Shown piece after piece: positions 18,021 to 56,107 of a stretch of DNA of 64,000 nucleotides. The first letter of the stretch is position 1. Each line of letters starts with the position of its first letter. The DNA comes from a virus (lineage: Duplodnaviria; Heunggongvirae; Uroviricota; Caudoviricetes). The stretch covers positions 22,232 through 86,231 of the IMG/VR virus record IMGVR_UViG_3300048924_000203; one strand, given 5' to 3'. The position numbers and the translations under genes are program-made. The notes under the pieces were generated by a model. That model was not told where the DNA came from. It was given only the letters and a program-made list of their open reading frames with translations, and did not search any database.

Positions 18021-18127
18021 TGCGCAGTTGGGGTAGTTGAAACCCGGCCCGCTTCCAGCGGGAAGCCTCCAGTTCGTTACTGGGACTGCGCTCAAACAGT
18101 AGGGCCTTGGAAGGGGAAGGAGCCCCA

Positions 18128-22031: not shown

Positions 22032-22465
22032 TGAGCGATACCACTGTCGACGTGAGTGAGTGCCCCGGTCCGAACGGCTCAACAGTTCCACTGTGCGTAT
22101 TCGAGAACGCTGAGCCGAAATACGGCGGCCGGTTGGCCGTGAGCCTGGCCGACGACATGGCCTTGTTCACGCATCCCGACTATCCGACGGATTTCACCGC
22201 ACGTCCGCGGTTCCTGTCCACGGCAGACCGTCGGGTGCTGGGCTTCCTGCTGATCGAAGGACTGCCGCCGGCGGAGTACTCCGTGGGCGATCGTGTTGGA
22301 ATCCTGGGCCGCACCAAGAGCTGGGGATACGGGACCGTCGTCGCGGTCGAGACGCCGGACCCCGAAGACGTCGACGACTGCGAGCCCGAAATCAGTGTGA
22401 AGTGGGACCGGGTGACCGCGGTACAGACTCACTACCCTTCGGCGCTGTTCCCGGCGGTTTTCTGA
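22031..22465 (+). CDS. hypothetical protein
   Basis: ORF track. Confidence 0.5.
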   Translation: MSDTTVDVSECPGPNGSTVPLCVFENAEPKYGGRLAVSLADDMALFTHPDYPTDFTARPRFLSTADRRVLGFLLIEGLPPAEYSVGDRVGILGRTKSWGYGTVVAVETPDPEDVDDCEPEISVKWDRVTAVQTHYPSALFPAVF

Positions 22466-42089: not shown

Positions 42090-42134
42090 AACCTCACGGG
42101 GTATGGCCTTGGAACCTGGTAGGTGCGTAGCGCG

Positions 42135-43700
42135 ATGACTTCGGAAACCGTCTCGTCTGAATCGTCAGGCAACGCGTCTGATCTGATTGCGACCCTGCTG
42201 CATCGGTCTCCGCGGATCGCGATGGCAGCCGCGTCGGCCCAGTTCGCGTGGCCGCTGGTGAAGCGCGCGCACACGAAGGTCAAGGAGCGCCGCACCTACA
42301 CGGTGAAGGTTCCAGCGACCGACGAAATCTACGACGACCTGCACGAATGGGTGTTGGGTCTGCTGCCCACCGATGAGCAGCGCGCGTTGGTGGCGTGGAC
42401 CTCGAAACGCGACGACCTCGGACCCACCGCCGCGTACCCGGGAAGCAGCGGACCGCCGAAGCCCCCGCGAATTCGCCTGCGGTACGACGGTTCTCGCGAG
42501 CAGATGGTCACCATCGGCGGACACCGCATCAAGGTCGTGATCAACGACGGCGAGGCGTACAAGGACGATGGCCGCTGGAAGCCCGCCGAGCTGATGTTCA
42601 CCATGCACTCGCTCGGCGCCCAACAGGCGCTGCTGCAGGAGATGGCTCAGGTGGCCAAGCGGTCACGCGAAGAGAAGCGCCAGCCCGTGTTCCGGATGCT
42701 CGACAAGTGGGGCGACTGGGCCCGCGTCGACGACCTGCCGGTCCGCGACCTGGACAGCGTCATCCTGGCGGACGGACAGCTCGACAGGCTGGTGGCCGAC
42801 GTCGCCGATTTCCTTGAGCGCGAAGGGGAGTACGCGCGCCGCTGCATCCCGTGGCACCGCGGACATCTCTACGAGGGGCCACCGGGGACCGGGAAGACGT
42901 CGGTGGCCCGTGCAATCGCCAGCCACTTCACGATGGACGTTTGGTACCTGCCGCTGGCTGACATCACGAAGGACTGCAACCTGCTGAACGCGATCAGCCG
43001 GATCACGCCGCGCTCGATGCTGCTGCTCGAAGACGTCGACGTGTTCCACGCAGCCACCCAGCGTGACGAGAACGCCGGCGTCACGCTGTCCGGGCTGCTG
43101 AACGCTCTGGATGGCATCGCCACGCCGCACGGTCTGCTCACGGTGCTGACCACGAACACGCCGGAGGTCCTGGACAAGGCGGTGGTTCGACCTGGCCGCG
43201 TGGACCTGGTCGAGCACTTCGGGTTCGCCACCGCTGATCAGGTCGCACGGTTGTTGAGCCGCTGGTACGACTGCCCTGTCCATCCGGCTGCGGTCAGCCC
43301 GATGGACAGTGTTCCGCCGGCTCAGATCGTGGAGGTGTGCAAGCGCAGCGCCACCATCGATGATGCGTGGCGCGAACTCGACAAGCTCAAGGCGAACAGC
43401 ACCAGCGTGATTACTCCGCCCATTGCCGTGGGATTCCGGACCGTAGGAGAACCGGCACAGGACCGTGAATCCTACCGGCAGCTGAGCTTCACATTCCACA
43501 GCAGCCGCCCGTCGGAGTTCCGCGTTCAGCTGTCGGTCGACGGTGTCGAGGCAGAGTCTGATCCGCTTCCCTACGACGCCGACAATGACGCTGCGAACGA
43601 TGCACGGTTACAGGCGATATCCCGTTGGGAAGAGAAAACGGGTCGCGTGTTGCCAGCAGACGCGAGAGCGTGGCTGCCGATCGAGATGGTGGCGTTCTGA
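42135..43700 (+). CDS. AAA+ ATPase of BCS1-like type
   Basis: Walker A GPPGTGKTS; Walker B LLLEDVD; sensor TTN; Arg finger PGRVDL; SGLLNALDGIA block matches the BCS1 signature. Confidence 0.8.
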   Translation: MTSETVSSESSGNASDLIATLLHRSPRIAMAAASAQFAWPLVKRAHTKVKERRTYTVKVPATDEIYDDLHEWVLGLLPTDEQRALVAWTSKRDDLGPTAAYPGSSGPPKPPRIRLRYDGSREQMVTIGGHRIKVVINDGEAYKDDGRWKPAELMFTMHSLGAQQALLQEMAQVAKRSREEKRQPVFRMLDKWGDWARVDDLPVRDLDSVILADGQLDRLVADVADFLEREGEYARRCIPWHRGHLYEGPPGTGKTSVARAIASHFTMDVWYLPLADITKDCNLLNAISRITPRSMLLLEDVDVFHAATQRDENAGVTLSGLLNALDGIATPHGLLTVLTTNTPEVLDKAVVRPGRVDLVEHFGFATADQVARLLSRWYDCPVHPAAVSPMDSVPPAQIVEVCKRSATIDDAWRELDKLKANSTSVITPPIAVGFRTVGEPAQDRESYRQLSFTFHSSRPSEFRVQLSVDGVEAESDPLPYDADNDAANDARLQAISRWEEKTGRVLPADARAWLPIEMVAF

Positions 43701-44285: not shown

Positions 44286-44563
44286 TGAGGTTGCGATTCG
44301 CGTTGTGGATGATGGCTCGCTGCTACCGATTAGTCGAGCTAATTGATCGGCGTGCGGTGCCGAAGTGTTCTCCGTGGGCATTCACGTTCGAAGAGGGCCG
44401 CGGCGCGGTGATCAACAACTCCGGGTCGTCGTTGAACGCCCGCCGTGGCGCTGCGCTCTGGTACACGAACGATCTGGACTATGAGCGAGCATGGTCCGAC
44501 TCGACCACATTCGCCGGCCGCGACGCATTGGCCGAGTTCATGGCTCGGCACGGGATCACGTGA
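44285..44563 (+). CDS. hypothetical protein
   Basis: TGATG start. Confidence 0.4.
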   Translation: MRLRFALWMMARCYRLVELIDRRAVPKCSPWAFTFEEGRGAVINNSGSSLNARRGAALWYTNDLDYERAWSDSTTFAGRDALAEFMARHGIT

Positions 44564-44603
44564 GCGGCATGGGGGCGCACCCTCCGCTCATAACGTCCAG
44601 TCC

Positions 44604-45008
44604 ATGAGCCTTGGACACGTACTCCTGATTCTGTCGATCTACGTGCTGACGGTGGCGAGCGTGACTCGCCTCGTGAACTACGACGTGATCTTCGACCCGA
44701 TCCGCCTGTGGCCGGCCCGCCGCGCCTCGGTCGCCCACGCCGCCGCGAAGGAGGCTGAAGCCAACGGCATGGCCATCGAGCACTCCGCGGCGATGAAGCG
44801 CTACGCCCGCTGGGTCCTGGTGTGCGACTTCATGGCCTGCCCGTGGTGCGTGTCCACGTGGGTCGCCGCCGCCACCGCGCCCGCCGTGATCCTGCTGACC
44901 GGCTGGTCCTGGTGGACCCTCCCGCCGCTCGCGCTCTCCGCCCGCTACCTGGTCGGATTCTGCGACCGCTGGGTAGCGGAGGACCTCACAATCGTCGACA
45001 AGGGCTAA
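44604..45008 (+). CDS. DUF1360-like integral membrane protein
   Basis: Three hydrophobic helices; LVNYDVIFDPIR motif. Confidence 0.5.
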   Translation: MSLGHVLLILSIYVLTVASVTRLVNYDVIFDPIRLWPARRASVAHAAAKEAEANGMAIEHSAAMKRYARWVLVCDFMACPWCVSTWVAAATAPAVILLTGWSWWTLPPLALSARYLVGFCDRWVAEDLTIVDKG

Positions 45009-45017
45009 ACACCCAGC

Positions 45018-47033
45018 TTGGCTACCGTCCGTCTCGTGACGGCCACCAATCTCCGCGTCGTTCGGCGCCCACGCACCCCGCTCGTCGCCGCACTCACGGC
45101 CGCCTCCGCGCCGGTCACGGACCCCACGAAAATCTTCACCGCCACCACAGGCCGCCACAACGCATGGCAGGACGACGCATGGCGCTACACGAAGTGCATC
45201 CCAGAACTCGGCTACTTCGTCCGCTGGCGCTCCAACGCCTGCGCACAGGTCCGCCTCGTCGCATCCGCCATCGACCCCGACACCGGGCTGCCCACCGGCT
45301 CGATCGACGAGAAGGACACTCAGGGCAAGGAGTTCGTCGAGCTGGTCAAGCAGATCGCCGGCGGGCCGCTTGGCCAGAAGCGGCTGATCAAGCGCGCCGC
45401 CACCTGCCTCACCGTCCCCGGCGAACTGTCCATCTGCATCCTGCAGACCGACGACGGCGAGAAGTGGTACGCGATCTCGAAGAAGCAGATCAAGCCGTCC
45501 CAGCAGAAGTCCGACTCGGTCGCGATCAAGCTGCCCGACGGCACCCTCCACGAGTTCGACAAGGGCAAAGACGCGATGTTCCGCGTCTGGAACGAGGACG
45601 CCGAGGACCCCTCCGAAGCTGACTCACCCGTCCGCGCCTGCCTCGACGCGCTCGGCGAGATCGAGCGCGCCACGAAGAAGATCAAGAACGCCGACCGCTC
45701 CCAGCTGCTGAACAACGGCCTGCTCATGGTCCCGTCGGAAGCATCCCTCCCGGACAACCAGGCACCGACCGCCGCAAGGCAGGAAGGCACTCCCACAGCG
45801 GCACAGTCCAAGCGGGTCGCCCAGTCCCTGCAGCGCATGATCGTCCAGGCCGCAGAAGCCTCCGTACGCGACGAGAACAGCGTCGCCGCGGTACTCCCGA
45901 TGGTCGCCGCCGCACCGGGCGAGCACCTCGGCAAGGTCGTCCACATCGAGTTCTCGAAAGAGGCACAGAAGTCCGCTGTCGAGATCCGCGACAGCGCCAT
46001 CGCCCGCACCGCAACAGGCCTGGACATCACCAAGGAACGCCTCCTCGGCATGGGCGAGAACTCCAACCACTGGACCGCCTACCTGCTGGCCGACGAAGAC
46101 GTGAAGCTGCACGTCAACCCGCCCATGGAAGTGCTCTGCCAGGCCATGTACGAGCACACCTTGTCGAACATGCTCGACGCGAAGGGCATCGACTCGTCCA
46201 AGTACACGCTGTGGTTCGACGCCTCGAACCTCACCAAGGACCCGGACCTCACCGACGAGTTCAAGGACGCGTACCAGTCGGGCACCGTCACCAGCACCTC
46301 GTTCGTCGACGGACTCGGCCTCCCCGAACGCGCCCTCTACGACTTCACCACCGAAGAAGGCAAGGCCCAGTGGGCACGCGACCGCGTCTCCGCCGACCCC
46401 AACCTGCTGCCAATTCTGGGGCAGATGATCCCCGAATTCGCAGGCTACGACTTCGGCACCCCACAACCAGCAGCACCGGGCCAGCCCGTCGACGACTACG
46501 GCAACCCCATCGACACCGGACAGGCATACGACCAGTCCACAGACACGAGCACCGACACGGCGACCACCAACCAGCAGACCAACGGACCTGCCGACGTGCA
46601 AGAACCGCAGACCGAAACCAACGACCCCACCACACCCACGTACAGCGTGGAATCACTGGCACGCGCCCGAGCAGAGACCGTCGCCCTCACAGTCGAAGAA
46701 CTCCTCGCCAACCGCGCACTCGAACTGGCCGCCAAGCGACGAATCCACACCAGCGACCGCGCACTCCACGCACGCCTCCGCCACGTCCCCGCACACGAAC
46801 GAAACCGCCACCTACCACCAGTCACACCAGCCGAAGTCCAACGCCTCATCAGGGGATGGGACGACATCCTCACCCCAGAGTTCGCGACCGCCAGCGGCCT
46901 GAACTACAACCGGCTCCACGCCGCTGTCTCCGCCCGGGTGATCGCTGAGCTCACGGCCGGCCAGGTGAACGCCCACGCCACGAACGGGCCGACGGCCACC
47001 TCATCCACCCCGACGAGCCTTGGAGTGTCCTGA
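45018..47033 (+). CDS. portal protein
   Basis: Size, position, acidic C-terminal tail; typical actinophage portal. Confidence 0.8.
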   Translation: MATVRLVTATNLRVVRRPRTPLVAALTAASAPVTDPTKIFTATTGRHNAWQDDAWRYTKCIPELGYFVRWRSNACAQVRLVASAIDPDTGLPTGSIDEKDTQGKEFVELVKQIAGGPLGQKRLIKRAATCLTVPGELSICILQTDDGEKWYAISKKQIKPSQQKSDSVAIKLPDGTLHEFDKGKDAMFRVWNEDAEDPSEADSPVRACLDALGEIERATKKIKNADRSQLLNNGLLMVPSEASLPDNQAPTAARQEGTPTAAQSKRVAQSLQRMIVQAAEASVRDENSVAAVLPMVAAAPGEHLGKVVHIEFSKEAQKSAVEIRDSAIARTATGLDITKERLLGMGENSNHWTAYLLADEDVKLHVNPPMEVLCQAMYEHTLSNMLDAKGIDSSKYTLWFDASNLTKDPDLTDEFKDAYQSGTVTSTSFVDGLGLPERALYDFTTEEGKAQWARDRVSADPNLLPILGQMIPEFAGYDFGTPQPAAPGQPVDDYGNPIDTGQAYDQSTDTSTDTATTNQQTNGPADVQEPQTETNDPTTPTYSVESLARARAETVALTVEELLANRALELAAKRRIHTSDRALHARLRHVPAHERNRHLPPVTPAEVQRLIRGWDDILTPEFATASGLNYNRLHAAVSARVIAELTAGQVNAHATNGPTATSSTPTSLGVS

Positions 47034-47215
47034 TGGGCGTGCGCGAGCGGGTGGTGCAGATCATCGGGGATGCGATCACCGCTGAGGTGATGGCGACGGC
47101 GTTCAACGAGATCGTCGGTGGCTTGGCGGACGGTCAGGGGAAGTACGCGGTGGACGTGGAGAAGGTCGCGGAGGCGGCTGCCGGGCGGTTGGAAGCTGAG
47201 GGGTTGATCCGATGA
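47033..47215 (+). CDS. hypothetical protein
   Basis: ORF track. Confidence 0.4.
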   Translation: MGVRERVVQIIGDAITAEVMATAFNEIVGGLADGQGKYAVDVEKVAEAAAGRLEAEGLIR

Positions 47216-47604
47216 ACGTTGCAGAGGCGATCGCGTGTGCTGGGTTGGCGCACATGGTGGGGGATTACGTGATCCAGTCGGATTGGATGGCGTCGGAGAA
47301 GACGAAGCGGTGGTGGCCGGCCATCGCGCACGGGGTCAGCTATGGGCTGCCGTTTGTGCTGGTGACGCAGTCGATCGTGGCGTTGGCGGTGATCGTCGGG
47401 ACGCACATCCTGATCGACCGCTGGCGTCTCGCTCGGCATGTGGTGTGGTTCAAGAATCAGCTGGCGCCCAAGGTGTTTCGGCCTGGTCACACGCCGACGG
47501 GCATGGGTGTGGGGAAGCCGGACTGGATGGCGGTGTGGCTGCTGATCATCGCGGACAACGTGCTGCACATGCTGATCAACGTCGGTTCGGTGGTGTGGCT
47601 CTGA
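47212..47604 (+). CDS. integral membrane protein (DUF3307-like)
   Basis: ORF track; hydrophobic helices. Confidence 0.5.
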   Translation: MNVAEAIACAGLAHMVGDYVIQSDWMASEKTKRWWPAIAHGVSYGLPFVLVTQSIVALAVIVGTHILIDRWRLARHVVWFKNQLAPKVFRPGHTPTGMGVGKPDWMAVWLLIIADNVLHMLINVGSVVWL

Positions 47605-47783
47605 TGGCCGAGATCGACCGCTCATACCCCGATCGCATCCGCGCGCACACCGAGCATGTGACGGTCACCCTGTACCGACCCGGCCAGCCCGACAGCCGCA
47701 TTGTCCTGGTGACCGACAAGGGGTACCACGTGGACGAGGTCATCGAGGCTGTGTTGGCCGTCCGTGACGAGGTGAACGGCTGA
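47604..47783 (+). CDS. hypothetical protein
   Basis: TGATG start. Confidence 0.4.
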   Translation: MAEIDRSYPDRIRAHTEHVTVTLYRPGQPDSRIVLVTDKGYHVDEVIEAVLAVRDEVNG

Positions 47784-47953
47784 TGCTCAGCGACTTCGAC
47801 CTGGCGCGGAAGCTGTGGTGGGCCGCGCACCAGATGAAGCGGCAGTACCGCGACGCCGGCTTCTGCATCGCCCGCCTCTTCTGCACTGAGCGGGGCATCG
47901 ACGCGGATGCCGCCGAGTACGACGTCGTGCACAGCGGATGGGAGCCGTCCTGA
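47783..47953 (+). CDS. hypothetical protein
   Basis: TGATG overlaps at both ends. Confidence 0.4.
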   Translation: MLSDFDLARKLWWAAHQMKRQYRDAGFCIARLFCTERGIDADAAEYDVVHSGWEPS

Positions 47954-50900
47954 TGTGGCCGAAGCCTGGTCAAGGGCTGGACCGCGTGCTGGCTGGTGAA
48001 GCTGCTGTTGAGGGCCTGTACCGGGAGGCGCTGACCCGCTGGTCGCCGGTCGCGATGGCCGCGGTGCTGCCGACGTTCGGCGCCGCCGTCACCGCGGATG
48101 CCGGCTACCCGCAGGACCCGCAGCTGCCCCCGGACCCTGCGGCTGTCGAGCAGGGCAACGGCTGGGTCACCGTCGCCGAGGTCGTGATCGTGGCGGGCGT
48201 GGCGGCGCTGTTCGCCGCCGCGGTGGTGGAGGCGATGGACGGTCTCGGCATCCCTCTGCCCGGCCTGCCGTCACTGAAACGCCAGGAACGTGCCGGAAAC
48301 CCGCAGGTCGCACCCCCCACGAGCAGCGTGACGGTCACCCGCGACCAGGCAAAACAGTCACACCGGGAAGACCCGAACGGTCCGTCTGCGGCCCGACCAG
48401 ACCCGACAACGCCCCCGCATGGTCCGAATCCCCAGGACGATACGACGAAACCGCTGGTCGCACCCGACCTGGATCCGGCAGTCCTGGCGATCGTCAACAC
48501 GGCGGCCGCCGACATGGACGCCGAACAGCTCCACGAGGCGATGCGCATCGTCGACGAAACCCCCGCCCTGGCGCAGGCCCGCGACCAAGTGGTCCAGGTC
48601 CAGCGCGACGCTGCCGCCCGCACGCCGAAGGTCGTCGCTGAGAAGGTCACCGCCGCGATCCGCGACACCGCTCCCGACGAGGCGGGCACGGTCACGATGG
48701 CCGCGCAACGCTCGGCCGCCGCCGACGTGCTGCAACCCGACAGCGACGCCATGGCCCAGATCGCGGCCACCGCCGGCCACCTCTCGGCCGCCGTGCAGAA
48801 CCACGCCTTGCAGGCCGCCGCCGAACTGTCCGAAGACGCGCCGGAACTCGAGAAATTCTGGGCCTGCACCCTCGACGGCCGGACCCGGGACACGCACTGG
48901 GCCGCCGACGGCGCCCGCGTCCCGCTGGCCGCGCCGTTCATCGTCGGCGGCGAACCACTCATGTTCCCCGCCGACCCGGCCGGCTCCCCGGCTGAGACGT
49001 ACGGCTGCCGCTGCCGCATGGGCATCCTCGCCCGCGACGAGTCCCTGCCGACCGAGGTGGACCGGCACACCGAACGCCTCGACGGCCACGACTCTGTCGC
49101 TGTGCACCGCGGGGGCCGCACCCAGGTAGAGGAAATTGAGGCCCGTGCAGCCCGAGGGAACACCCGGGCGCGCGACAACCGTGACGGAGTCGGGACCGTG
49201 GCATCAGCCGCGCCGGATGATCAGGAGTTGACGATGACCAGTGCCATTGCCGCTGAGGACCTGCCTGACGGCCTGACCATCCGGCCGTCCGCCGAGCTCG
49301 CCGCGACCGCCGAGCCGGCCATCCCTGTCGACGGCGCCACCGGGGAAACCGTCGACGGTGAGACGTTCCTGACGTTCACCGACGCACTGTTCGCCGTCAC
49401 CGGCATCCCCACCGACGACCGCCGAATGCTCCTCTCCACCATCGAGCTTGAGTTCCGGGACTTCCCGCTTCCGCTGCAGTGGAAGGAGAAGACCGGCGAC
49501 GGCCACACTGGCTCTGTCACCGTCGGCGTCATCGAGTCCGGCTCGCTGAACGACCAGGGCGAGATCCGCGGCTCCGGCTACATGCTGAACAACAGCAACG
49601 CGTACAAGGCCCTGGAGCTGATCCAGCACGGCGTGAACCGGCCGTCCATCGACATGGCCGACGCCACCGCCGTCCTCGCGTACGACGACGGCACCGAAGT
49701 CACCGAGGAAAACCTCGACCCCACCCAGCGGATCAGCGAGGCGTACACCCGCGGCACCGTGACCGCATGCACGATCGTCGCCATCCCCGCGTTCGGGCAG
49801 ACCCGACTCGCCCTGAACCCCGAACGCGAGTCGCGGGACGTGGCCATGACCGCAGCCGCCCTGACCGCTGCCGCCGCCTACCAGCAGCCGGTCTACGAAC
49901 CCGCCATGTTCGCCGCCGCCGACCCGAACCTGCTCGCGCCGATGCGCCTGTCGATCGACCCCGACACCGGGCACGTGTTCGGATTTATCGCCACCTGGAA
50001 GGACAAGCACCGCTCCGTTGGCCTCGGCCACATCAAGCCGCCCCGCTCGCACACGAACTACGAGCACTTCCACACCAGCCCGGGTGTGCACCTGTCGAAC
50101 GGCACCGTGCTGCCGGTCGGCAGGCTCACGGTCGGCATCGGCCACGCCCCGACCCGCGGCATCTCCTCGGCCGCCGCGCAGGCGCACTACGACAACGTCG
50201 AAGCGTGCTGGGCCATCGGCCGCATCAGCGAGCACCGGCTGGGCATCTACTTCTCCGGCGTCGTCGCACCCTGGGCCAGCCCCGAGAAGGTCCAGATGGG
50301 TCTCGCATCGCCCGTGTCCGGTGACTGGCGCCCGGTCGGACAGGGCAACGCCCTGGAGCTGGTCGCCGTCCTCAGCGTCAACACCCCGGGGTTCCTGTGC
50401 AAGACGGAAACCGACGCGTCGGGCGCCCCGCTGGCGATGGTCGCCTCCCTGACCGTCGCCGACGACGTGCCGGTCATGTCCTACTCGCTGGACGAGCTGA
50501 AAGCGGTGTTCGCGCAGGTGCTGGCCGAGGACCGTGCCGCAAGCAACGCTGACCGCGCGCAGCTGGTGAACAACGGCGTGCTGATGGCCCCGTCGGAGGC
50601 GTCTCTCCCTGGCCCGCAGGCCAGCGCCGACCCGGCCCCCGCCGCCGACGACACGGCCACGGACACCGACCTGGCCCCTGCCGCCGTCGACGCGACCGAC
50701 CGCATGGGCGAACTGATCGCACAGTTCAGCGGCATCGACGCACCGGCCACGCCGGCCACCCCGGCGGAAGCCGCGCCGGTCGAGCTGACCCCGACGGAAC
50801 GCATGGGCTCCCTGATCAGCGAGTTCAACGGCAAGGTCCGCGACGCCGCCTACTGGGGCAAGCCTGTCGGAACCCCGATCACCCCCGGCATGAAGCCGAA

Positions 50901-51366
50901 GGGCCGGAGCGACCACGACCTGAGCAAGGCATCACACAACCAACTGGTCCAGGGTCTGCACGATGCTGAGGTCCACGGTGACCGAGAGGGCGCAGCCGAG
51001 ATCCGCGCCGAAGCAGAGAAGCGGCCTGCGTCGAAGGGCCAGGTATCGAAGCTCGACGCTGACGGCAAGTTGCAGTACGACTACGGCACCGGCGCCAACG
51101 CCAAGTCCAATGAGCGCCGCGACCGCATTCTCATGGCGCGGTCCGCTCCGGAGCGGTTGTCCACGAAGGACCTCAAGACCGCCCGCACGCACATGCTGGC
51201 CGACCAGAAGCGCATGGCAGACCCCCGCTTCAAACTTCCTGGCGAGGACACGTCCGCGCAGGACAAGAAGCGAGCACAGGAACTGGCCGGTGTGGAGCGC
51301 GAGCTTGAGGCGCGCAAGAAGGCTCCCAGCAGCAAGTCGAGTGGCGGTAGCAGCCCAAAAGCCTGA
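47953..51366 (+). CDS. MuF-like minor capsid (head morphogenesis) protein, probably fused to a capsid maturation protease
   Basis: MuF motif CTLDGRTRDTHWAADG...YGCRCRMG; no separate protease gene between portal and capsid. Confidence 0.75.
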   Translation: MWPKPGQGLDRVLAGEAAVEGLYREALTRWSPVAMAAVLPTFGAAVTADAGYPQDPQLPPDPAAVEQGNGWVTVAEVVIVAGVAALFAAAVVEAMDGLGIPLPGLPSLKRQERAGNPQVAPPTSSVTVTRDQAKQSHREDPNGPSAARPDPTTPPHGPNPQDDTTKPLVAPDLDPAVLAIVNTAAADMDAEQLHEAMRIVDETPALAQARDQVVQVQRDAAARTPKVVAEKVTAAIRDTAPDEAGTVTMAAQRSAAADVLQPDSDAMAQIAATAGHLSAAVQNHALQAAAELSEDAPELEKFWACTLDGRTRDTHWAADGARVPLAAPFIVGGEPLMFPADPAGSPAETYGCRCRMGILARDESLPTEVDRHTERLDGHDSVAVHRGGRTQVEEIEARAARGNTRARDNRDGVGTVASAAPDDQELTMTSAIAAEDLPDGLTIRPSAELAATAEPAIPVDGATGETVDGETFLTFTDALFAVTGIPTDDRRMLLSTIELEFRDFPLPLQWKEKTGDGHTGSVTVGVIESGSLNDQGEIRGSGYMLNNSNAYKALELIQHGVNRPSIDMADATAVLAYDDGTEVTEENLDPTQRISEAYTRGTVTACTIVAIPAFGQTRLALNPERESRDVAMTAAALTAAAAYQQPVYEPAMFAAADPNLLAPMRLSIDPDTGHVFGFIATWKDKHRSVGLGHIKPPRSHTNYEHFHTSPGVHLSNGTVLPVGRLTVGIGHAPTRGISSAAAQAHYDNVEACWAIGRISEHRLGIYFSGVVAPWASPEKVQMGLASPVSGDWRPVGQGNALELVAVLSVNTPGFLCKTETDASGAPLAMVASLTVADDVPVMSYSLDELKAVFAQVLAEDRAASNADRAQLVNNGVLMAPSEASLPGPQASADPAPAADDTATDTDLAPAAVDATDRMGELIAQFSGIDAPATPATPAEAAPVELTPTERMGSLISEFNGKVRDAAYWGKPVGTPITPGMKPKGRSDHDLSKASHNQLVQGLHDAEVHGDREGAAEIRAEAEKRPASKGQVSKLDADGKLQYDYGTGANAKSNERRDRILMARSAPERLSTKDLKTARTHMLADQKRMADPRFKLPGEDTSAQDKKRAQELAGVERELEARKKAPSSKSSGGSSPKA

Positions 51367-51407
51367 CCGCCCGCGCGGCGGCACAACTCGCGCATGTCGA
51401 CCCGGCC

Positions 51408-52400
51408 GTGTTCGACATCTCCCGGATGCCGGCCAGCCTGAAGCAGTACTGGCTGGCGGGCGCCGGCGCAGCGAAAATCCGGTGGGGCGCCGGTGGCGAC
51501 TTCGACCGCTGCGTGACTGCGATCAACGCCGAGATCACCAAGCACGGCCGAAAGCCGTTGCCGGACCACGAGATCAAGGGCCTGTGCGCGAACCTGCACC
51601 GCGAAGCCACAGGCGCGACACCCGGTAACGCGCCGGGGGAGCGGCACCACTCCATCGATGATCCGACTGCGCGGATGGCCGAACTGATCGCCGAGTTCGC
51701 GCAGCGCTTCGTCCGGAACGCCGACTACTGGGGAAAGCCAGTCGGGACGCCGATCAAACCTGGCATGAAGCCGAAGCGCGGCAAGGGCCACGAGTATCGG
51801 CCTGCGAAGCACCGAGGCATCGAAGGCTGGGAGAACCCGCCGACCACGCCCGCTCGCGCCGACGACGCGCACGTGCTGGCGAACATCATCCACCAGCAGG
51901 GCTGGACCGGCCCGATGGACGAACTCGACGACGACGCGTTCGACCGGTTCGCCGCCGACTCCCCGGCCGTCGTCTACCGCGGGCTGACCGGCTTCCTCGA
52001 CCGGACCGGAGGCAAGCGGACACCGCGATCGGCGGAGGAGCTGCACCGCCAGTTCATCGACGAGGACGACCCGTTCATCGGCAGCGGCCACTACGGGTAC
52101 GGCTGGTACACCAGCGACAAGGTTGACCGGGCGAACGAGTACGCCGGCGAGTCGTCGACGGGCAAGGGGGACCGGTCGGCGGTCGGCCGCTCCGTCATGG
52201 AGATGGCGGTCCGCCCCGAAGCTCGAATCCTGGACCTCACCGGGCCCGACGTGAAGAACAGCGACCGACGCGACGACCTTGGGCAGTACGCGGCGCAGCT
52301 CGGCTACGACGGTGTGAAGCTCTCGGGAACGACGCCTCGCGAGTCGTACTATCTGCTGTTGAACCGCTCCGCGGTGGTGGTCAGGAGAATGCGTCAGTGA
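51408..52400 (+). CDS. ADP-ribosyltransferase-like (R-S-E type) domain protein
   Basis: VVYRG (Arg motif), GWYTSDK (STS-like motif); N-terminus repeats a module of the upstream gene. Confidence 0.5.
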   Translation: MFDISRMPASLKQYWLAGAGAAKIRWGAGGDFDRCVTAINAEITKHGRKPLPDHEIKGLCANLHREATGATPGNAPGERHHSIDDPTARMAELIAEFAQRFVRNADYWGKPVGTPIKPGMKPKRGKGHEYRPAKHRGIEGWENPPTTPARADDAHVLANIIHQQGWTGPMDELDDDAFDRFAADSPAVVYRGLTGFLDRTGGKRTPRSAEELHRQFIDEDDPFIGSGHYGYGWYTSDKVDRANEYAGESSTGKGDRSAVGRSVMEMAVRPEARILDLTGPDVKNSDRRDDLGQYAAQLGYDGVKLSGTTPRESYYLLLNRSAVVVRRMRQ

Positions 52401-52681
52401 TCAGTCCAGATGTGAGCCGGGCACTCGGCACGCTGACCGCTGCCGCCACGGATCACCGGTGGCGTGACCGCCCCGAGTTCGAAGGCCTCCGCGGATTCAT
52501 CTTCGACGCCGGCGAACTCGATCCGAGCTGGGACGACGACGACCCGAAAGTGCTCGCAGCGTTCGCCGACAACCCCGAGCGCGTCGATCAGATCCGCAAG
52601 CTGGCGCCGTACCTCGATGAGGCCGGTTGGCACGGCGACATGCCCGCCGCCGCGAAGGCGCTTGGTTTCGAGTACCCGTAG
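52397..52681 (+). CDS. hypothetical protein
   Basis: ORF track; GTGA start. Confidence 0.45.
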   Translation: MISPDVSRALGTLTAAATDHRWRDRPEFEGLRGFIFDAGELDPSWDDDDPKVLAAFADNPERVDQIRKLAPYLDEAGWHGDMPAAAKALGFEYP

Positions 52682-52711
52682 CTGCACGGGCGGCCCATAC
52701 CGTCCCGGGTC

Positions 52712-52891
52712 ATGGGATGCAGCTGCCGAGGTGCTGGTCGTGCCGGTGGAACCACCAGTAGTGGTGCGACGATCACCGGCTACCAGTACACGTCACCGAC
52801 CGGCCAGGTGAAGGTGTTCCTGAACATCAATGAGGCGAAGGCCGAGATGCGGAAGAACGTCGGCGGCGAGATCCGCCAACTCACGTCGTAG
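52712..52891 (+). CDS. hypothetical small protein (MGCSC N-terminus)
   Basis: 59-aa ORF, below the track cutoff. Confidence 0.3.
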   Translation: MGCSCRGAGRAGGTTSSGATITGYQYTSPTGQVKVFLNINEAKAEMRKNVGGEIRQLTS

Positions 52892-52957
52892 ATGACTCGC
52901 GTCCGGCGTTGTGTTGGCGCCGCTACTCGAAACCTACTGTAAAGCTCCGCGCCACCC

Positions 52958-52985
52958 TTGAAAGCCTCTGACCTGCGCCTATGGG
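52958..52985 (+). promoter_or_regulatory. candidate late promoter: TTGAAA, 16-nt spacer, TATGGG
   Basis: AT-richer 225-bp gap upstream of the capsid gene. Confidence 0.3.
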
Positions 52986-53114
52986 TCGCACTCTAAAACT
53001 ACTTGAAGCGTTTGCACCCCGCATTCCTAGCTTCTGCCGAGTAAGAGAGCTTCCGTCGAGAGCTATGTGCCGGGAAGCGATCTGACCGACGTACAGACCG
53101 CTAGGAGCACTCCC

Positions 53115-55235
53115 GTGAAGTTCACGATGCCCGACGACCTCTCCACCCTCACCGTCGCTGAGCTCGATGCCCTCGCCGCCGAAGCTCAGGCCGAGATCAA
53201 CGTCTACGTGGCCCAGCACGCGGCCAAGAAGACGTTCTCTCCCGAGGACGTGGCCGATTTCGAGTTCCTGTCCAACGCGCACAAGACGATCACCACGGCA
53301 TCCGCCGATCTGGTCGCTGCTGAGCAGGCCGACGCCGCCAAGCTGGCCGACCTGATCGAGCAGAACACGCCGAAGCCTGCCGCCCCGGCAGAGCCCGAGG
53401 CTCCGGCAGCCCCCGAGGCAGCGGCCGGTGAAGACACCGGTGGTGACGCGACCATCGCCAATGGCGCGATCGTCGACACCGCGCCGGCTCCTGCCGCCCC
53501 CGCGGCACCGGCTCCCGCAGCAGCACCCGCAGCCGTCCCGGCACCGGCCGAACCCGCACCAGCGCCGGTCGAGCAGCCGGTAGCAGTCGCCGCCGCAGCT
53601 ACCGCGCCGGTGAACTTCGCCGCCGCGACCACCAGCACCCCGGTGCCCACCCCCACGGACAGCAAGCCTGGCCGTAAGTGGAACCTGCTGCCGTCCGCCG
53701 CGAACTTCGCCGAGCACGAAGGCAAGGGCGTCAGCCTCCGCGAGATCGCCATGGGCATCTCCGAGATCGACCTCGGTAGCGGTCACGGCGTCCGGCAGAC
53801 CGGCACCTTCAACGGCATGGCGAAGCAGGCCATCGCCACCATCGCCCGCCCGCAGGTCACCATGGAGGCGACCAGCGAACAGCAGGTCTACGACTTCCTG
53901 CAGACGCTCGGCAAGGAGATCCCCGGCCACGGCGACGCCACGGCCAATGGTCTCGTCGCTGCAGGTGGTTGGTGCGCCCCGTCGCAGCAGCTGTACGACT
54001 TCTGCGACGTCCCCCCGGCTTCGGGCCTGATCTCGCTGCCGGACTTCCCGTTCGACATGTCCCGCGGCGGCGTCCGCGTCCCCGTCAACCCGGACATCTC
54101 GGCCCTGCTGTCCAAGCTGTGGCACTACACCGAGACCGAGCTGGAGGCCACCAACGGCCAGGGCGACCCGACCGCGGTCAAGCCGATCATCGAACTGCCT
54201 TGCCCGGACGAGTTCATCGAGTGGCGGCTGGAAGCGATCGGCTGGGCCGCGAAGGCCGGCATCCTGCAGAAGTCGGCATGGCCCGAAGCCATCGAGAACG
54301 CGCTGCAGCAGATTCAGGTCGCTCACCAGCACCGTGTCTCGCAGCTGTCGATCGGCAAGATGGTCGCCGGCTCCGGCCCAGTGAAGGTCGTCCCGACCGA
54401 CGCCGTACTCGGCGCCACGTCCGGCGCGCTGAACGCTCTGGACATCAACGCCGTCAACCTGCGCATCGACAAGGGCCTCGCCATCGACGCCACCATCGAA
54501 GGCACCGCCCCGATCTTCTTCCGGAACGTGCTGCGCGCCGACCTCGCACTCCGCGAGGACAAGGAGTTCCTGGAAGTCACCGACGCCGATATCGACCGCT
54601 GGTTCGCGGTCCGGAACATCTACCTGCAGTACGTGGTGGATTGGCAGAAGGGTGGCAGCGGCCAGCCCGGCGATCTGAATGCGCAGCGGTGGCCTGGCCA
54701 CGCGGACGTGATGCTGTACCCGGCCGGCACCTGGTTCCGCCAGCTGGCCAACGTCATCACGCTGGGTGTGCAGTACCCGCTGGAGCTGCTGCAGCTGAAC
54801 CAGTACACGCACATCTTCACCGAGGACTCGTTCCAGGTGGGTCGTCGCTGCAACGAGTCGATCAACGTGCGGCTGCCGTTGTGCGTGAACGGCGCGGTCG
54901 GTGCTCGCGAGCGCATCGAGTGCTCCGGCGTCTACAACGAGACGGTGACCAAGACGGTCACCATCGGTGGCACGGTCCTGCCGACCGGCGGCCTGTTCCC
55001 GGTGTCGTTCTCCAACGGCGGCACCGCGAACATCGCGTGGAACTCGACCAACACGCAGGCCAAGACCGCGCTCGGCGCGATCGACGACGGCCACCCGGCC
55101 AGCGAGTTCACCGTCGCTGGCGGCCCGCTGCCGGGCGCTGCGCTGGCGATCACCTACCCGGCCGAGCTGGGTGACCTGTCGGCCACTGAGGTCGGTCTGA
55201 CCGGTGGTACCGGCACCACGGTCACCGTCGCCTGA
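53115..55235 (+). CDS. major capsid protein (HK97 fold) with N-terminal scaffolding domain and Pro/Ala-rich linker
   Basis: GTG after AGGAGC; coiled-coil N-terminus; GGWCAPS motif; C-terminal Ig-like tail. Confidence 0.8.
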   Translation: MKFTMPDDLSTLTVAELDALAAEAQAEINVYVAQHAAKKTFSPEDVADFEFLSNAHKTITTASADLVAAEQADAAKLADLIEQNTPKPAAPAEPEAPAAPEAAAGEDTGGDATIANGAIVDTAPAPAAPAAPAPAAAPAAVPAPAEPAPAPVEQPVAVAAAATAPVNFAAATTSTPVPTPTDSKPGRKWNLLPSAANFAEHEGKGVSLREIAMGISEIDLGSGHGVRQTGTFNGMAKQAIATIARPQVTMEATSEQQVYDFLQTLGKEIPGHGDATANGLVAAGGWCAPSQQLYDFCDVPPASGLISLPDFPFDMSRGGVRVPVNPDISALLSKLWHYTETELEATNGQGDPTAVKPIIELPCPDEFIEWRLEAIGWAAKAGILQKSAWPEAIENALQQIQVAHQHRVSQLSIGKMVAGSGPVKVVPTDAVLGATSGALNALDINAVNLRIDKGLAIDATIEGTAPIFFRNVLRADLALREDKEFLEVTDADIDRWFAVRNIYLQYVVDWQKGGSGQPGDLNAQRWPGHADVMLYPAGTWFRQLANVITLGVQYPLELLQLNQYTHIFTEDSFQVGRRCNESINVRLPLCVNGAVGARERIECSGVYNETVTKTVTIGGTVLPTGGLFPVSFSNGGTANIAWNSTNTQAKTALGAIDDGHPASEFTVAGGPLPGAALAITYPAELGDLSATEVGLTGGTGTTVTVA

Positions 55236-55327: not shown

Positions 55328-56107
55328 ATGACCGTAGAGACCGCACCAGCACCGTTTTACTTCGATGCACCGCTGGTCAACCCATCGCCGAACGGCCTCT
55401 ACGGCGCCACGGACTGGGCTGACGAGGGGGAGCCGCACCGGTGGCTCACCGCAGGCGTGCAGATCCGTCCGCACAACTACGGCGGCGAGACAGGGTTCGG
55501 CGTGTGGACCGGCACCTGGTGCGCGCCGCCGATCGACCCGGACGAGAAGAAGGACGGCGAGCGTCCGGACATGGACCCGCCGCCGTTCGATCCGATCGTC
55601 GTGTGGGCTGCCGACAAGTGTGACTTGACTCGTGGGTCGCAGACCGAGGTCGTCACACGCGCACAGCAGAATCTGCGGCTGCAGGAGCAGAACGCAGTGG
55701 AGATGGATCTTGCGGTGCGTGCCCTGGCCGACGCGGGCGCACCCACCGCGGTCGCTGACATCACGGCAGCGGTGTCGAAACTCGAAGAGCTGCTGGCGGA
55801 TACGAACACCGTCGGTCAGATTCACGCGGCGGCGGGCTGGGCGGCGTATGCCGCGCAGGCCCAGCTGATCTTCCGTTCCGGATCGACGCTGAAGACCCCG
55901 TTGGGTCACACGTGGGTGTTCGGCGGCGGCTACAAGGCCGGCCTGGGCGCGAAGCTGGTTGCCACGAGCCCGACGTACGGCTGGCGTGGCGAGGCCAAGA
56001 CACGCACGGCGATCCGGCAGGAGTGGAACCGCTTCGTGGCCATTGCCGAACGCCCGGTTGCTGTCGGCTATGAGAAGGCCGTCGGCGCAGTCACCATCAC
56101 CCCGTAG
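55328..56107 (+). CDS. hypothetical capsid-associated protein
   Basis: ORF track; ribosome binding site GGAGG. Confidence 0.55.
   Translation: MTVETAPAPFYFDAPLVNPSPNGLYGATDWADEGEPHRWLTAGVQIRPHNYGGETGFGVWTGTWCAPPIDPDEKKDGERPDMDPPPFDPIVVWAADKCDLTRGSQTEVVTRAQQNLRLQEQNAVEMDLAVRALADAGAPTAVADITAAVSKLEELLADTNTVGQIHAAAGWAAYAAQAQLIFRSGSTLKTPLGHTWVFGGGYKAGLGAKLVATSPTYGWRGEAKTRTAIRQEWNRFVAIAERPVAVGYEKAVGAVTITP

Follow-up and report, generated by a model that had tools for sequence, protein, structure and literature searches.

The window analyzed here is a 64,000-nucleotide (nt) stretch, positions 22,232 to 86,231, of the Caudoviricetes record IMGVR_UViG_3300048924_000203 in IMG/VR. Across these 64 kb the GC content is 62–71% and the sequence is actinophage-like. 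Among its head genes, a gene for a MuF-like protein fused to a head maturation protease is followed by an open reading frame (ORF) at 51408–52400. This ORF is most likely not a separate gene, and comparison with related loci argues that it is best read as a -1 frameshift extension of the MuF–protease gene. The junction between the two contains the following features (aa, amino acids).

47938–51366, plus strand: MuF-like and head maturation protease fusion gene with a 0-frame product of 1142 aa, identified from Pfam, PHROG and nucleotide relatives.
51354–51360, plus strand: slippery heptamer C CCA AAA, of the form X XXY YYZ, in phase with the fusion frame.
51364–51366, plus strand: TGA, the 0-frame stop of the short product.
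51360–52400, plus strand: -1 frame extension of 346 codons plus stop.
51408–52400, plus strand: 330-aa ORF (the "next gene"), read here as the 3′ part of the -1 frame extension.

The 3′ end of the fusion gene reads AGC CCA AAA GCC TGA, which places the stop one codon past the heptamer. CCCAAAA occurs once in the window on either strand, and the codons of the heptamer are rare there (CCA makes up 7% of the Pro codons and AAA 11.5% of the Lys codons). After the slip the -1 frame reads SPK followed by SLTARAAAQLAHVDPAVFDISRMPAS and runs directly into the 330-aa ORF, giving a predicted long product of 1141 + 346 = 1487 aa. The GC content at third codon positions (GC3) of the extension is 0.87. The 16 codons preceding the GTG at 51408 (SLTARAAAQLAHVDPA) resemble RLTAEQAVIDPA in loci L004 and L008, and the peptide AAAQLAHVDPAVFDISR (also SLTAR) is encoded in the -1 frame ahead of the annotated start, within 51360–51425 on the plus strand.

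Conservation of the site was analyzed in 12 distinct loci (the window, L002, L004, L005 (= L006, L007), L008, L012, L013, L014, L015, L018, L041 and L057). In 12 of 12 loci the heptamer lies in phase, with exactly 6 nt separating it from the gene end. The block CCCAAAAGNCTGA is invariant in all of them while its flanks diverge. The upstream carrier proteins are 45–77% identical to that of the window, and those of L041 and L057 are only 45% identical. The -1 frame is open in all 12 loci and extends for 199–359 codons in the 11 that are not truncated; the extensions of L012–L015 are 199–282 aa long, with L015 ended by the contig edge. In L002, L004, L005 and L008 the upstream gene ends in CCCAAAAG[ACG]CTGA, and the -1 frame continues into the ORF of a predicted effector. 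No ATG, GTG or TTG lies in the -1 frame between its upstream stop and the slip site, and the first start-type codon is found 12–138 codons past the slip site (138 in L012, 111 in L014 and 69 in L013). The start-less -1 stretch has a GC3 of 0.71–0.89 versus about 0.5 at second codon positions. Ahead of the called starts the encoded peptides are kept between loci (e.g., AKVRQPDKWWRKDGxRPxVGESTDGL), and the extensions occupy "intergenic" gaps of 200–400 nt that are otherwise without explanation. The -1 frame is interpreted as a frameshift extension because several loci hold conserved, coding-like sequence in it that could be expressed by no other route. The negative control, L182, has neither extension nor heptamer; its gene ends in TPTERIGQMLAGRA, and the stop codon is also where the following gene begins. 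A conserved -1 frameshift together with a modular architecture of the MuF–protease carrier is predicted with good confidence from these comparisons.

The loci were reached by several routes. L018 is a close relative found via its portal protein (89% identical), and it carries the site. A PK[AGD] C-terminus is present in 6 of 120 homologs of the C-terminal half of the fusion, and L012–L015 were taken from these. A nucleotide-pattern scan of IMG/VR returned two true loci (L041 and L057) among 41, and the same scan of genome contigs yielded, after filtering, only chance matches. When the protease domain was used to look for further relatives, the viral and metagenome collections yielded a single truncated locus and the genome collection yielded none.

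The original prediction had described tandem ERM-type motifs in the fusion, a third copy in the ORF at 51408, a YWG-type sequence after the motif, and a peptide common to the portal and the fusion. A repeat search recovered all of them where they had been placed, as three families. The first, D1, pairs 50836–50918 with 51711–51793 (83 nt, 81% identical; VRDAAYWGKPVGTPITPGMKPK versus VRNADYWGKPVGTPIKPGMKPK). The second, D2, pairs 45687–45763 in the portal gene with 50545–50621 in the fusion (77 nt, 81% identical, and 81–85% across analyses). The third, D3, consists of three 42-nt copies at 50693, 50792 and 51664 that encode RMGELIAQF, RMGSLISEF and RMAELIAEF. A self-BLAST of 44500–53000 scored D1 at 69.9 bits and D2 at 68.0 bits. 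Sixty codon-shuffled controls gave a mean top score of 28.0 (standard deviation 2.0, highest 33.4), and D1 and D2 are therefore well above chance and are not low-complexity Ala/Pro tracts. The D1 and D3 copies make up the following modules.

50693–50734, plus strand: ERM helix copy 1, TDRMGELIAQFSG (D3).
50792–50833, plus strand: ERM helix copy 2, TERMGSLISEFNG (D3), homologous to the canonical C-terminus ..TPTERMxxLLxxRA.
50836–50918, plus strand: YWG core copy 1, VRDAAYWGKPVGTPITPGMKPKG (D1).
51664–51705, plus strand: ERM helix copy 3, TARMAELIAEFAQ (D3), also in L004 and L008.
51711–51793, plus strand: YWG core copy 2, VRNADYWGKPVGTPIKPGMKPKRGKG (D1), directly before the predicted effector and at the same place in L004 and L008.

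By sequence comparison the ERMxxLIxEF element is the normal C-terminal tail helix of this protease family, because about 100 of 120 homologs of the fusion C-terminal half end with it (consensus VGxPPxPxTP(T/A)E(R/E)(M/I)xxLLxx, then stop). The slip site lies directly after the ERM helix in L002, L012, L013, L014, L041 and L057, and the short product would therefore end like a canonical family member while the long one continues. The tandem ERM pair is common to the window, L018, L014 (/P0008), L004 and L008 and is therefore older than their divergence. Wherever another domain follows, the helix is succeeded by a core with the consensus (V/I)(R/K)xxx(Y/F/W)W(G/R)xPxGTPIxPGMKP. Cores homologous to those of the window are found in the Mycobacterium phage GodPhather, in L018, in proteins P0009 and P0010, and in toxins of Gordonia phages. 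The core is at aa 20–45 of Chidiebere gp26 and gp27 and of GMA6 orf13 and orf14; these Gordonia carriers are VIP2-like toxins and an adjacent protein of about 1000 aa. The distribution points to VRxxxYWGxPVGTPIxPGMKPK as a conserved tag preceding cargo domains. Over a 17-codon stretch of the core, the two window copies differ by five silent third-position changes and one residue, and silent divergence with near-identical residues indicates selection, not recency. By analogy, the ERM helix may tether the protein inside the procapsid, and the YWG core may be a cargo tag, a processing site or a recombination boundary; confidence in any such specific function is much lower than in the frameshift.

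A related arrangement was seen in the Gordonia phages at L016 4997–7077 (Chidiebere gp25/gp26) and L017 4955–7044 (GMA6 orf12/orf13). The gene ahead of the VIP2-like toxin terminates in RRARHLLTPPTEEKR and a stop, and the toxin opens with VRDxEYWGxPxGTPITPGMKP in the -1 frame relative to the preceding gene, the two overlapping by ATGA. The ERM-like and YWG junction is thus split over two ORFs in these unrelated phages.

The placement of the repeats "across structural genes" is misleading if, as is most likely, the ORF at 51408 continues the fusion gene. The third ERM copy would then belong to the same polypeptide lineage as the first two, and GodPhather-like phages hold all of these elements in one ORF. 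The suggestion of docking or cleavage motifs pointed in the right direction for the ERM/YWG module, which is conserved across a large protein family. A recent illegitimate recombination is contradicted for these copies by the family-wide distribution of the module and by the divergence of its silent sites.

Downstream of the slip site, the extension contains a domain shared with other actinophages and a variable C-terminal part, and it is followed by a small ORF.

51417–51671, plus strand: "IRWG" domain, KQYWLAGAGAAKIRWG..GDFDRC..LC..H, matching phrog_6439 (E 2.3e-22) and phrog_21406 positions 1209–1293.
51789–52397, plus strand: type A C-terminal domain of 203 aa, a predicted effector.
52397–52681, plus strand: 94-aa ORF, a candidate immunity protein.

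The IRWG domain lies inside the capsid maturation protease/MuF fusion ORF in many of 240 actinophage records, and it follows the ERM helix in frame in P0031, P0035, P0039, P0049, P0053 and GodPhather. Four unrelated C-terminal types of extension were found behind homologous carriers: type A in the window, L002, L004, L005 and L008; type B in L012, L014, L018 and probably L015; type C in L013 and L057; and type D in L041. Type B aligns with the last 200 positions of phrog_1752 and type C with the C-termini of phrog_13257 and phrog_34915. These PHROGs are "head maturation protease" or "head morphogenesis" families, and types B and C are therefore in frame with such proteins elsewhere. The type D extension (L041 10255–11112, 285 aa) sits behind a carrier 45% identical to that of the window and has no Pfam match. 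Pfam and NCBIfam scans of the 330-aa ORF, the fusion C-terminus, the 94-aa ORF and types B, C and D gave nothing or sub-threshold noise.

Close homologs of type A formed six clusters among 5.8 billion proteins and lie on contigs arranged in the same way. Among 1.84 billion representatives there were 745 remote homologs (E ≤ 1e-3). The domain is at the extreme C-terminus in 88 of 110 homologs, and the N-terminal partners among 93 scanned proteins included Phage_Mu_F (15), VG15 (5) and Phage_min_cap2 (2). Six of the 93 remote homologs have weak Pfam matches to ADP-ribosyltransferase (ART) families (ART-PolyVal, PARP, ADPrib_exo_Tox and DUF3990; best E 1e-4). A profile search of the PDB returned 33 weak matches (E 0.05–0.8), nearly all with the ART fold (tankyrase, PARP, diphtheria toxin), that align on GxGxYxS..A..Y. 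The type A alignment is invariant or almost so at YRG, at GxY and at a second Tyr. The VVEM motif has a non-conserved Glu and that of GExYYxVLNR is the majority residue only, which leaves no invariant catalytic Glu. A divergent ART fold is possible for type A but unproven, and the effector is probably toxic. Two other assignments were rejected: hhalign of type A against the Gordonia VIP2-like ARTs showed no relationship, and a RelA/SpoT-like identity of L041 type D was dropped for want of Pfam support.

The 94-aa ORF overlaps the effector stop with its start (GTGA), and AGGAGA lies 9 nt upstream of that start. An ORF of 94–95 aa follows every type A effector (also L002, L004, L005, L008 and L009), and an unrelated small ORF with an NPYRG motif is downstream of type B instead (L012 and L014), so that the small downstream ORF co-varies with the effector type. 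The 94-aa ORF has no Pfam or PHROG match and is a candidate cognate immunity protein. In L009 (2627–3411) a type A fragment and its 94-aa partner immediately follow a TrkA_N-domain gene, and the 3.4-kb contig has no MuF–protease upstream; this could be a chimeric assembly or a toxin–immunity cassette detached in a bacterial genome.

The D2 repeat is of a different nature. Its two copies correspond to the following elements.

45687–45752, plus strand: portal motif NADRSQLLNNGLLMVPSEASLP, aa 224–245, comprising a short helix flanked by the end of the long stem helix and by the first clip strand.
50545–50610, plus strand: portal-like peptide NADRAQLVNNGVLMAPSEASLP, aa 870–891 of the fusion, in the linker after the protease (D2).

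The peptide had been predicted to be 25 residues long; it is present, with a length of 22–26 aa. In 110 portal homologs the most conserved columns include N224, A225, S228, R229, L230, N233, G234, P239, E241, S243, L244 and P245. The AlphaFold2 (AF2) model of the portal has helices at 206–227 and 229–233, a strand at 236–239, a disordered loop and a returning helix at 267–284, which by canonical portal topology makes the motif the modeled stem–clip junction. The portal-like peptide is missing from GodPhather gp8, the L002 fusion and P0008, which share the portal motif. The fusion of L018, the closest relative, has a diverged, decaying copy, NADKSQMVNEGLLMATPEDTQA. The fusion copies of the window and L018 are 64% identical in nucleotides and agree in 11 of 22 residues, and the portals are 85% identical and agree in 19 of 22. 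Val8 and Ala15 occur in both fusion copies and suggest that these arose once. Position 4 covaries with the portal within each genome (R/R, CGC/CGC in the window; K/K, AAG/AAG in L018), and Gln6 (CAG) of the window portal matches the fusion copies and not other portals. The most economical history is an old ectopic insertion into a variable, fast-evolving linker in the ancestor of the window and L018, followed by short-tract gene conversion that partly homogenized the copy with the portal. The portal-like peptide is probably a recombination footprint, and illegitimate recombination, unsuited to the ERM/YWG copies, is the better reading here. A further exact match of 19 nt joins 45270–45288 in the portal to 49954–49972 in the protease part of the fusion, and both copies encode IDPDTG. 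At 37.2 bits versus the shuffle maximum of 33.4, it could be a second micro-conversion tract or a coincidence of two conserved motifs.

The portal and MuF–protease identities given in the original prediction hold in PHROG, Pfam and AF2/Foldseek comparisons. The remaining head-region features are listed below.

45018–47033, plus strand: portal protein gene, 671 aa (phrog_776, E 1.7e-212; AF2 and Foldseek).
48760–49020, plus strand: MuF domain, aa 275–361 of the fusion (Pfam PF04233 Phage_Mu_F and PHROG head-morphogenesis families).
49855–50514, plus strand: predicted head maturation protease region, aa 640–859 of the fusion (phrog_18402, E 8.6e-30; phrog_29860).
52712–52891: small Cys-rich DUF7196 ORF, MGCSCRGAGRAGG.. 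(Pfam DUF7196).
53067–55235: major capsid protein, 722 aa, between the DUF7196 ORF and the next capsid ORF.

The portal model has a predicted local distance difference test score (pLDDT) of 80 and matches the solved portals of HK97, phiXa and lambda, among others, with a Foldseek probability of 1.0, identifying a portal fold; PDB sequence searches with the portal, by single sequence and by profile, gave zero matches, but the fold search did match. PHROG families matching the fusion are phrog_21406, phrog_859, phrog_18402 and phrog_595. Its Phage_Mu_F match (E 2.9e-6, 28.4 bits) is just below the gathering cut-off of 29.6. PHROG head-morphogenesis families cover aa 200–377 with E values of 1e-9 to 5e-21, PF04233 is precomputed on homologs of the fusion, and the fusion gene comes after the portal gene. 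The protease region is 81% identical to GodPhather and L002. A Pfam scan of the fusion gave no Peptidase_S78 match, and the GenBank annotation of relatives agrees with the head maturation protease label from PHROG. The closest annotated relatives are the Mycobacterium phages GodPhather, Jeon and Taptic, which are alignable in nucleotides over the protease core only; positions 49361–50459 are 78–79% identical to the "capsid maturation protease and MuF-like fusion protein" genes of this group.

Several neighboring features were recorded. The MuF–protease gene of L018 (13362–17912, = L019 4152–8702) encodes 1516 aa with an intein (PF14890 Intein_splicing) and still ends at a CCCAAAAGGCTGA site with a type B extension. 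The DUF7196 ORF between the MuF–protease/effector cassette and the capsid gene is kept in all relatives, including those without an extension. In L005 (2012–2529; also L006 and L007) the DUF7196 ORF and the capsid gene are separated by a ParE/PhdYeFM toxin–antitoxin pair encoded on the opposite strand. The C-terminal ~90 aa of the 722-aa capsid protein (aa 629–718) match major-tail-protein PHROGs and may be an Ig-like decoration domain. ORF 55328–56107 is 51% identical to the GodPhather "major capsid pentamer protein", and the phage therefore has separate hexamer and pentamer capsid proteins. A BCS1-like AAA ATPase is encoded at 42123–43700, immediately upstream of the head genes (Pfam AAA, E 1.7e-16; BCS1_N, E 3.7e-7), and at the same place in L018. 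The window has one tRNA-Gly(TCC) gene at 18022–18093, and an Rfam scan of the whole window found no family at gathering score.

The frameshift has to be weighed against an independent gene at 51408–52400, started at GTG 51408 or ATG 51426 and sharing the ERM/YWG modules through a common docking partner, with CCCAAAAGNCTGA conserved as, e.g., a termination or reinitiation signal. Gene callers do annotate a separate gene here, and a number of observations count against the frameshift and the mechanism built on it. The GTG at 51408 is only 16 codons past the slip site, and start-type codons follow at 12–34 codons in L002, L004, L005, L008 and L015; independent initiation is possible at the window locus, which taken alone is not decisive. 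Folding of nine loci detected no conserved or significant RNA stimulator downstream of the heptamer, and Rfam gave no match for the downstream RNA. Hairpins are clear only in L004, L008, L012 and L015, with Z-scores of -2.6 to +1.4 that are mostly not significant; a 7–8-bp hairpin, GACCGCC..GGCGGUC, is found in L004, L008 and L012, and the window, L013 and L014 have it weakly or not at all. Sampling was partly biased, with L012–L015 picked by their PK[AGD] ends and L041 and L057 by a nucleotide pattern, and only L002, L004, L005, L008 and L018 were reached independently of the site. The trans-frame product is a prediction from sequence comparison. The toxin role of the effector is likewise a prediction and its ART signal is weak: type A has no Pfam, NCBIfam or PHROG match, its AF2 model built with six homologs has a pLDDT of 38 and is unusable, and hhalign against a VIP2-like ART gave a probability of 0.7%. 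The function of the ERM/YWG modules is proposed by analogy. The independent gene nevertheless leaves unexplained the conserved coding-like -1 sequence that spans 69–138 codons before any ATG, GTG or TTG in L012, L014, L013 and L018, the amino acid conservation that reaches upstream of the called starts, the same domains in frame in other phages, and a heptamer of rare codons that is missing where the extension is missing. The 51408 start also has no Shine-Dalgarno-like sequence ahead of it, a poorly discriminating comparison here where many genes are without clear motifs of this kind. An independent gene is very unlikely on this evidence. Even less credible is a frame change produced by an assembly or sequencing indel, or by transcriptional instead of ribosomal slippage. 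The window does come from a metagenome assembly and the site holds a short A4 run, but twelve distinct assemblies, drawn from separate projects (JGI, ENA, Logan, NCBI and IMG/VR), show the identical architecture, and A4 is much shorter than the known slippage tracts of RNA polymerase.

The role of the repeats is a separate matter. Cleavage of the ERM/YWG modules by the fused head maturation protease, cutting MuF–protease, linker, IRWG and effector apart, concerns only the module role and is compatible with the frameshift model. The modules stand at every domain boundary, and ELIAEF holds the (L/I)xE pattern after which T4 gp21 cuts capsid targeting sequences. The Gordonia YWG core, some 20–45 residues from the cargo N-terminus, is placed like a removable propeptide. 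Against cleavage, the ERM helix is the very C-terminus of about 100 canonical homologs, where a cut would take off only 2–6 residues, and this role is possible but doubtful. The notion that all of the repeats, ERM/YWG included, are non-functional footprints of a recent duplication or illegitimate recombination within the genome draws on the 81% nucleotide identity between copies ~870 nt and 4.9 kb apart, and it is the favored reading for the portal-like peptide. The GodPhather copy after IRWG is far more degenerate, so some homogenization or cassette import is possible in the window lineage. For the modules this notion is highly improbable: the five silent changes and one residue difference in the 17-codon YWG core signify purifying selection, the module is kept in proteins 45% identical and in unrelated Gordonia phages, and the tandem ERM pair was in place before the window, L018, L014, L004 and L008 diverged. 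Conversely, the portal-like peptide could be functional if it mimicked the stem–clip element, docked the MuF–protease to the portal or its partners and co-evolved with them. It copies one of the most conserved portal motifs and is retained in two lineages, position 4 covaries at the codon level, the window portal has its Gln6 in common with the fusion copies, and the MuF-family protein gp7 of SPP1 binds the portal. This role is unlikely. The peptide is missing from GodPhather, L002 and P0008 despite the same portal motif, and the fusion copies diverge faster than the portals, which indicates relaxed constraint in a variable linker. Going by the model and canonical topology, the clip would face outward from the capsid, away from internal proteins, and the three-base covariation is better explained by short-tract gene conversion.

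In the mechanism proposed for the frameshift, the repeats would belong to one modular head-internal protein and not to two genes. Most ribosomes would stop at the UGA and make the 1142-aa MuF–protease, and a minority would slip back one base to make a product of ~1487 aa that adds IRWG, the second junction module and the effector. Effector and small ORF would be a MuF-type polymorphic toxin with its immunity protein. The MuF–protease carrier would load the toxin into the capsid, and delivery would take place along with the DNA, in the manner of Alt in T4. The ERM/YWG elements would be the junctions of this architecture, each a tether, cargo tag or processing site. A still more general proposal is that this actinophage lineage meters polymorphic injected effectors by recoding, one gene giving a structural or enzymatic short form and, at a fixed low ratio, a long form that bears the toxin and is restrained by a co-encoded immunity protein, and that ERM/YWG is a general capsid-cargo tag; it is put forward tentatively, as an idea with the balance somewhat against it. 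If it is true, the tag would be functionally equivalent to the T4 capsid targeting sequence and could load foreign proteins into mycobacteriophage heads; the short conserved peptide is also a candidate tag for loading cargo into capsids. Should the frameshift be real, the "capsid maturation protease and MuF-like fusion" genes of this phage group and the hypothetical genes or gaps that follow them are mis-annotated, and actinophage structural operons would have a second conserved recoding event beside that of the tail chaperones. It would account for the joining of a swappable, potentially toxic effector to an essential head protein, since not all copies would have to carry the burden. It would also extend the MuF polymorphic-toxin concept to mycobacteriophage-like phages, with relevance to mycobacterial phage therapy and lysogen competition. 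The repeats would be functional junction elements and not recombination scars, the portal-like peptide excepted.

A conserved -1 frameshift in MuF–protease genes appears undescribed except for a passing prediction. PRFect (McNair et al.; PMC10274946/PMC10885494) lists adjacent MuF-like and VIP2 genes among unannotated frameshift predictions in SEA-PHAGES genomes, and its authors note that such pairs occur as single fusion genes elsewhere (PMC10274946). That remark is one sentence under "false positives", gives no site, conservation analysis or link to polymorphism and immunity, and does not concern MuF–protease fusions. A literature search found no other precedent for a toxin joined to MuF by recoding. 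The MuF polymorphic toxins of temperate phages, with their small downstream ORFs, were described by Jamet et al. 2017 (PMC5576092), which makes no mention of frameshifting. Like them, the window has, between its portal gene and its capsid gene, an N-terminal MuF domain with a variable C-terminal domain and a co-varying small ORF, and type A is also found in frame on Phage_Mu_F proteins elsewhere. Unlike them, MuF is here also fused to a head maturation protease, the variable domain is joined by a predicted -1 frameshift that would give a short toxin-less and a long toxin-bearing form, the effector types are without a Pfam model, and a conserved ERM/YWG junction precedes the cargo. In tail assembly chaperones a -1 frameshift is likewise conserved (lambda G/GT; Xu, Hendrix and Duda 2004, cited in PMC7302621). 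It is similar in having a slippery heptamer close to the 3′ end of a structural gene, a minority product extended at its C-terminus, a site kept across very divergent phages and a fused single ORF in some of them. The MuF–protease case differs in that the protein is head-internal, the 0-frame stop is only one codon past the heptamer, and the extension is polymorphic and probably an effector instead of a conserved assembly domain.

Internal head proteins offer an analogy. T4 has a capsid targeting sequence and carries the injected ADP-ribosyltransferase Alt in its capsid, and the HK97 protease reportedly has a C-terminal encapsidation domain. Short peptides common to head-internal proteins, a capsid-borne enzyme effector and a protease tail that directs encapsidation may thus have counterparts here. 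There is no sequence relationship, and the cargo would be covalently linked to the protease–MuF carrier and not separately targeted. The closest architectural comparison is with GodPhather, Jeon and Taptic (Northamptonvirus), in which portal, fusion, DUF7196, hexamer and pentamer capsid protein genes are syntenic with those of the window. GodPhather gp8 is a single 1682-aa ORF that lacks CCCAAAA, a type A effector, the 94-aa ORF and the portal-like peptide. Its order of MuF, protease, ERM/YWG module (TERMAAALSAYAEGEFARRVRNADYWGVPVGTPIRAGMKPRG), charged region, IRWG and a degenerate second module is collinear with the window, where the same arrangement is interrupted.

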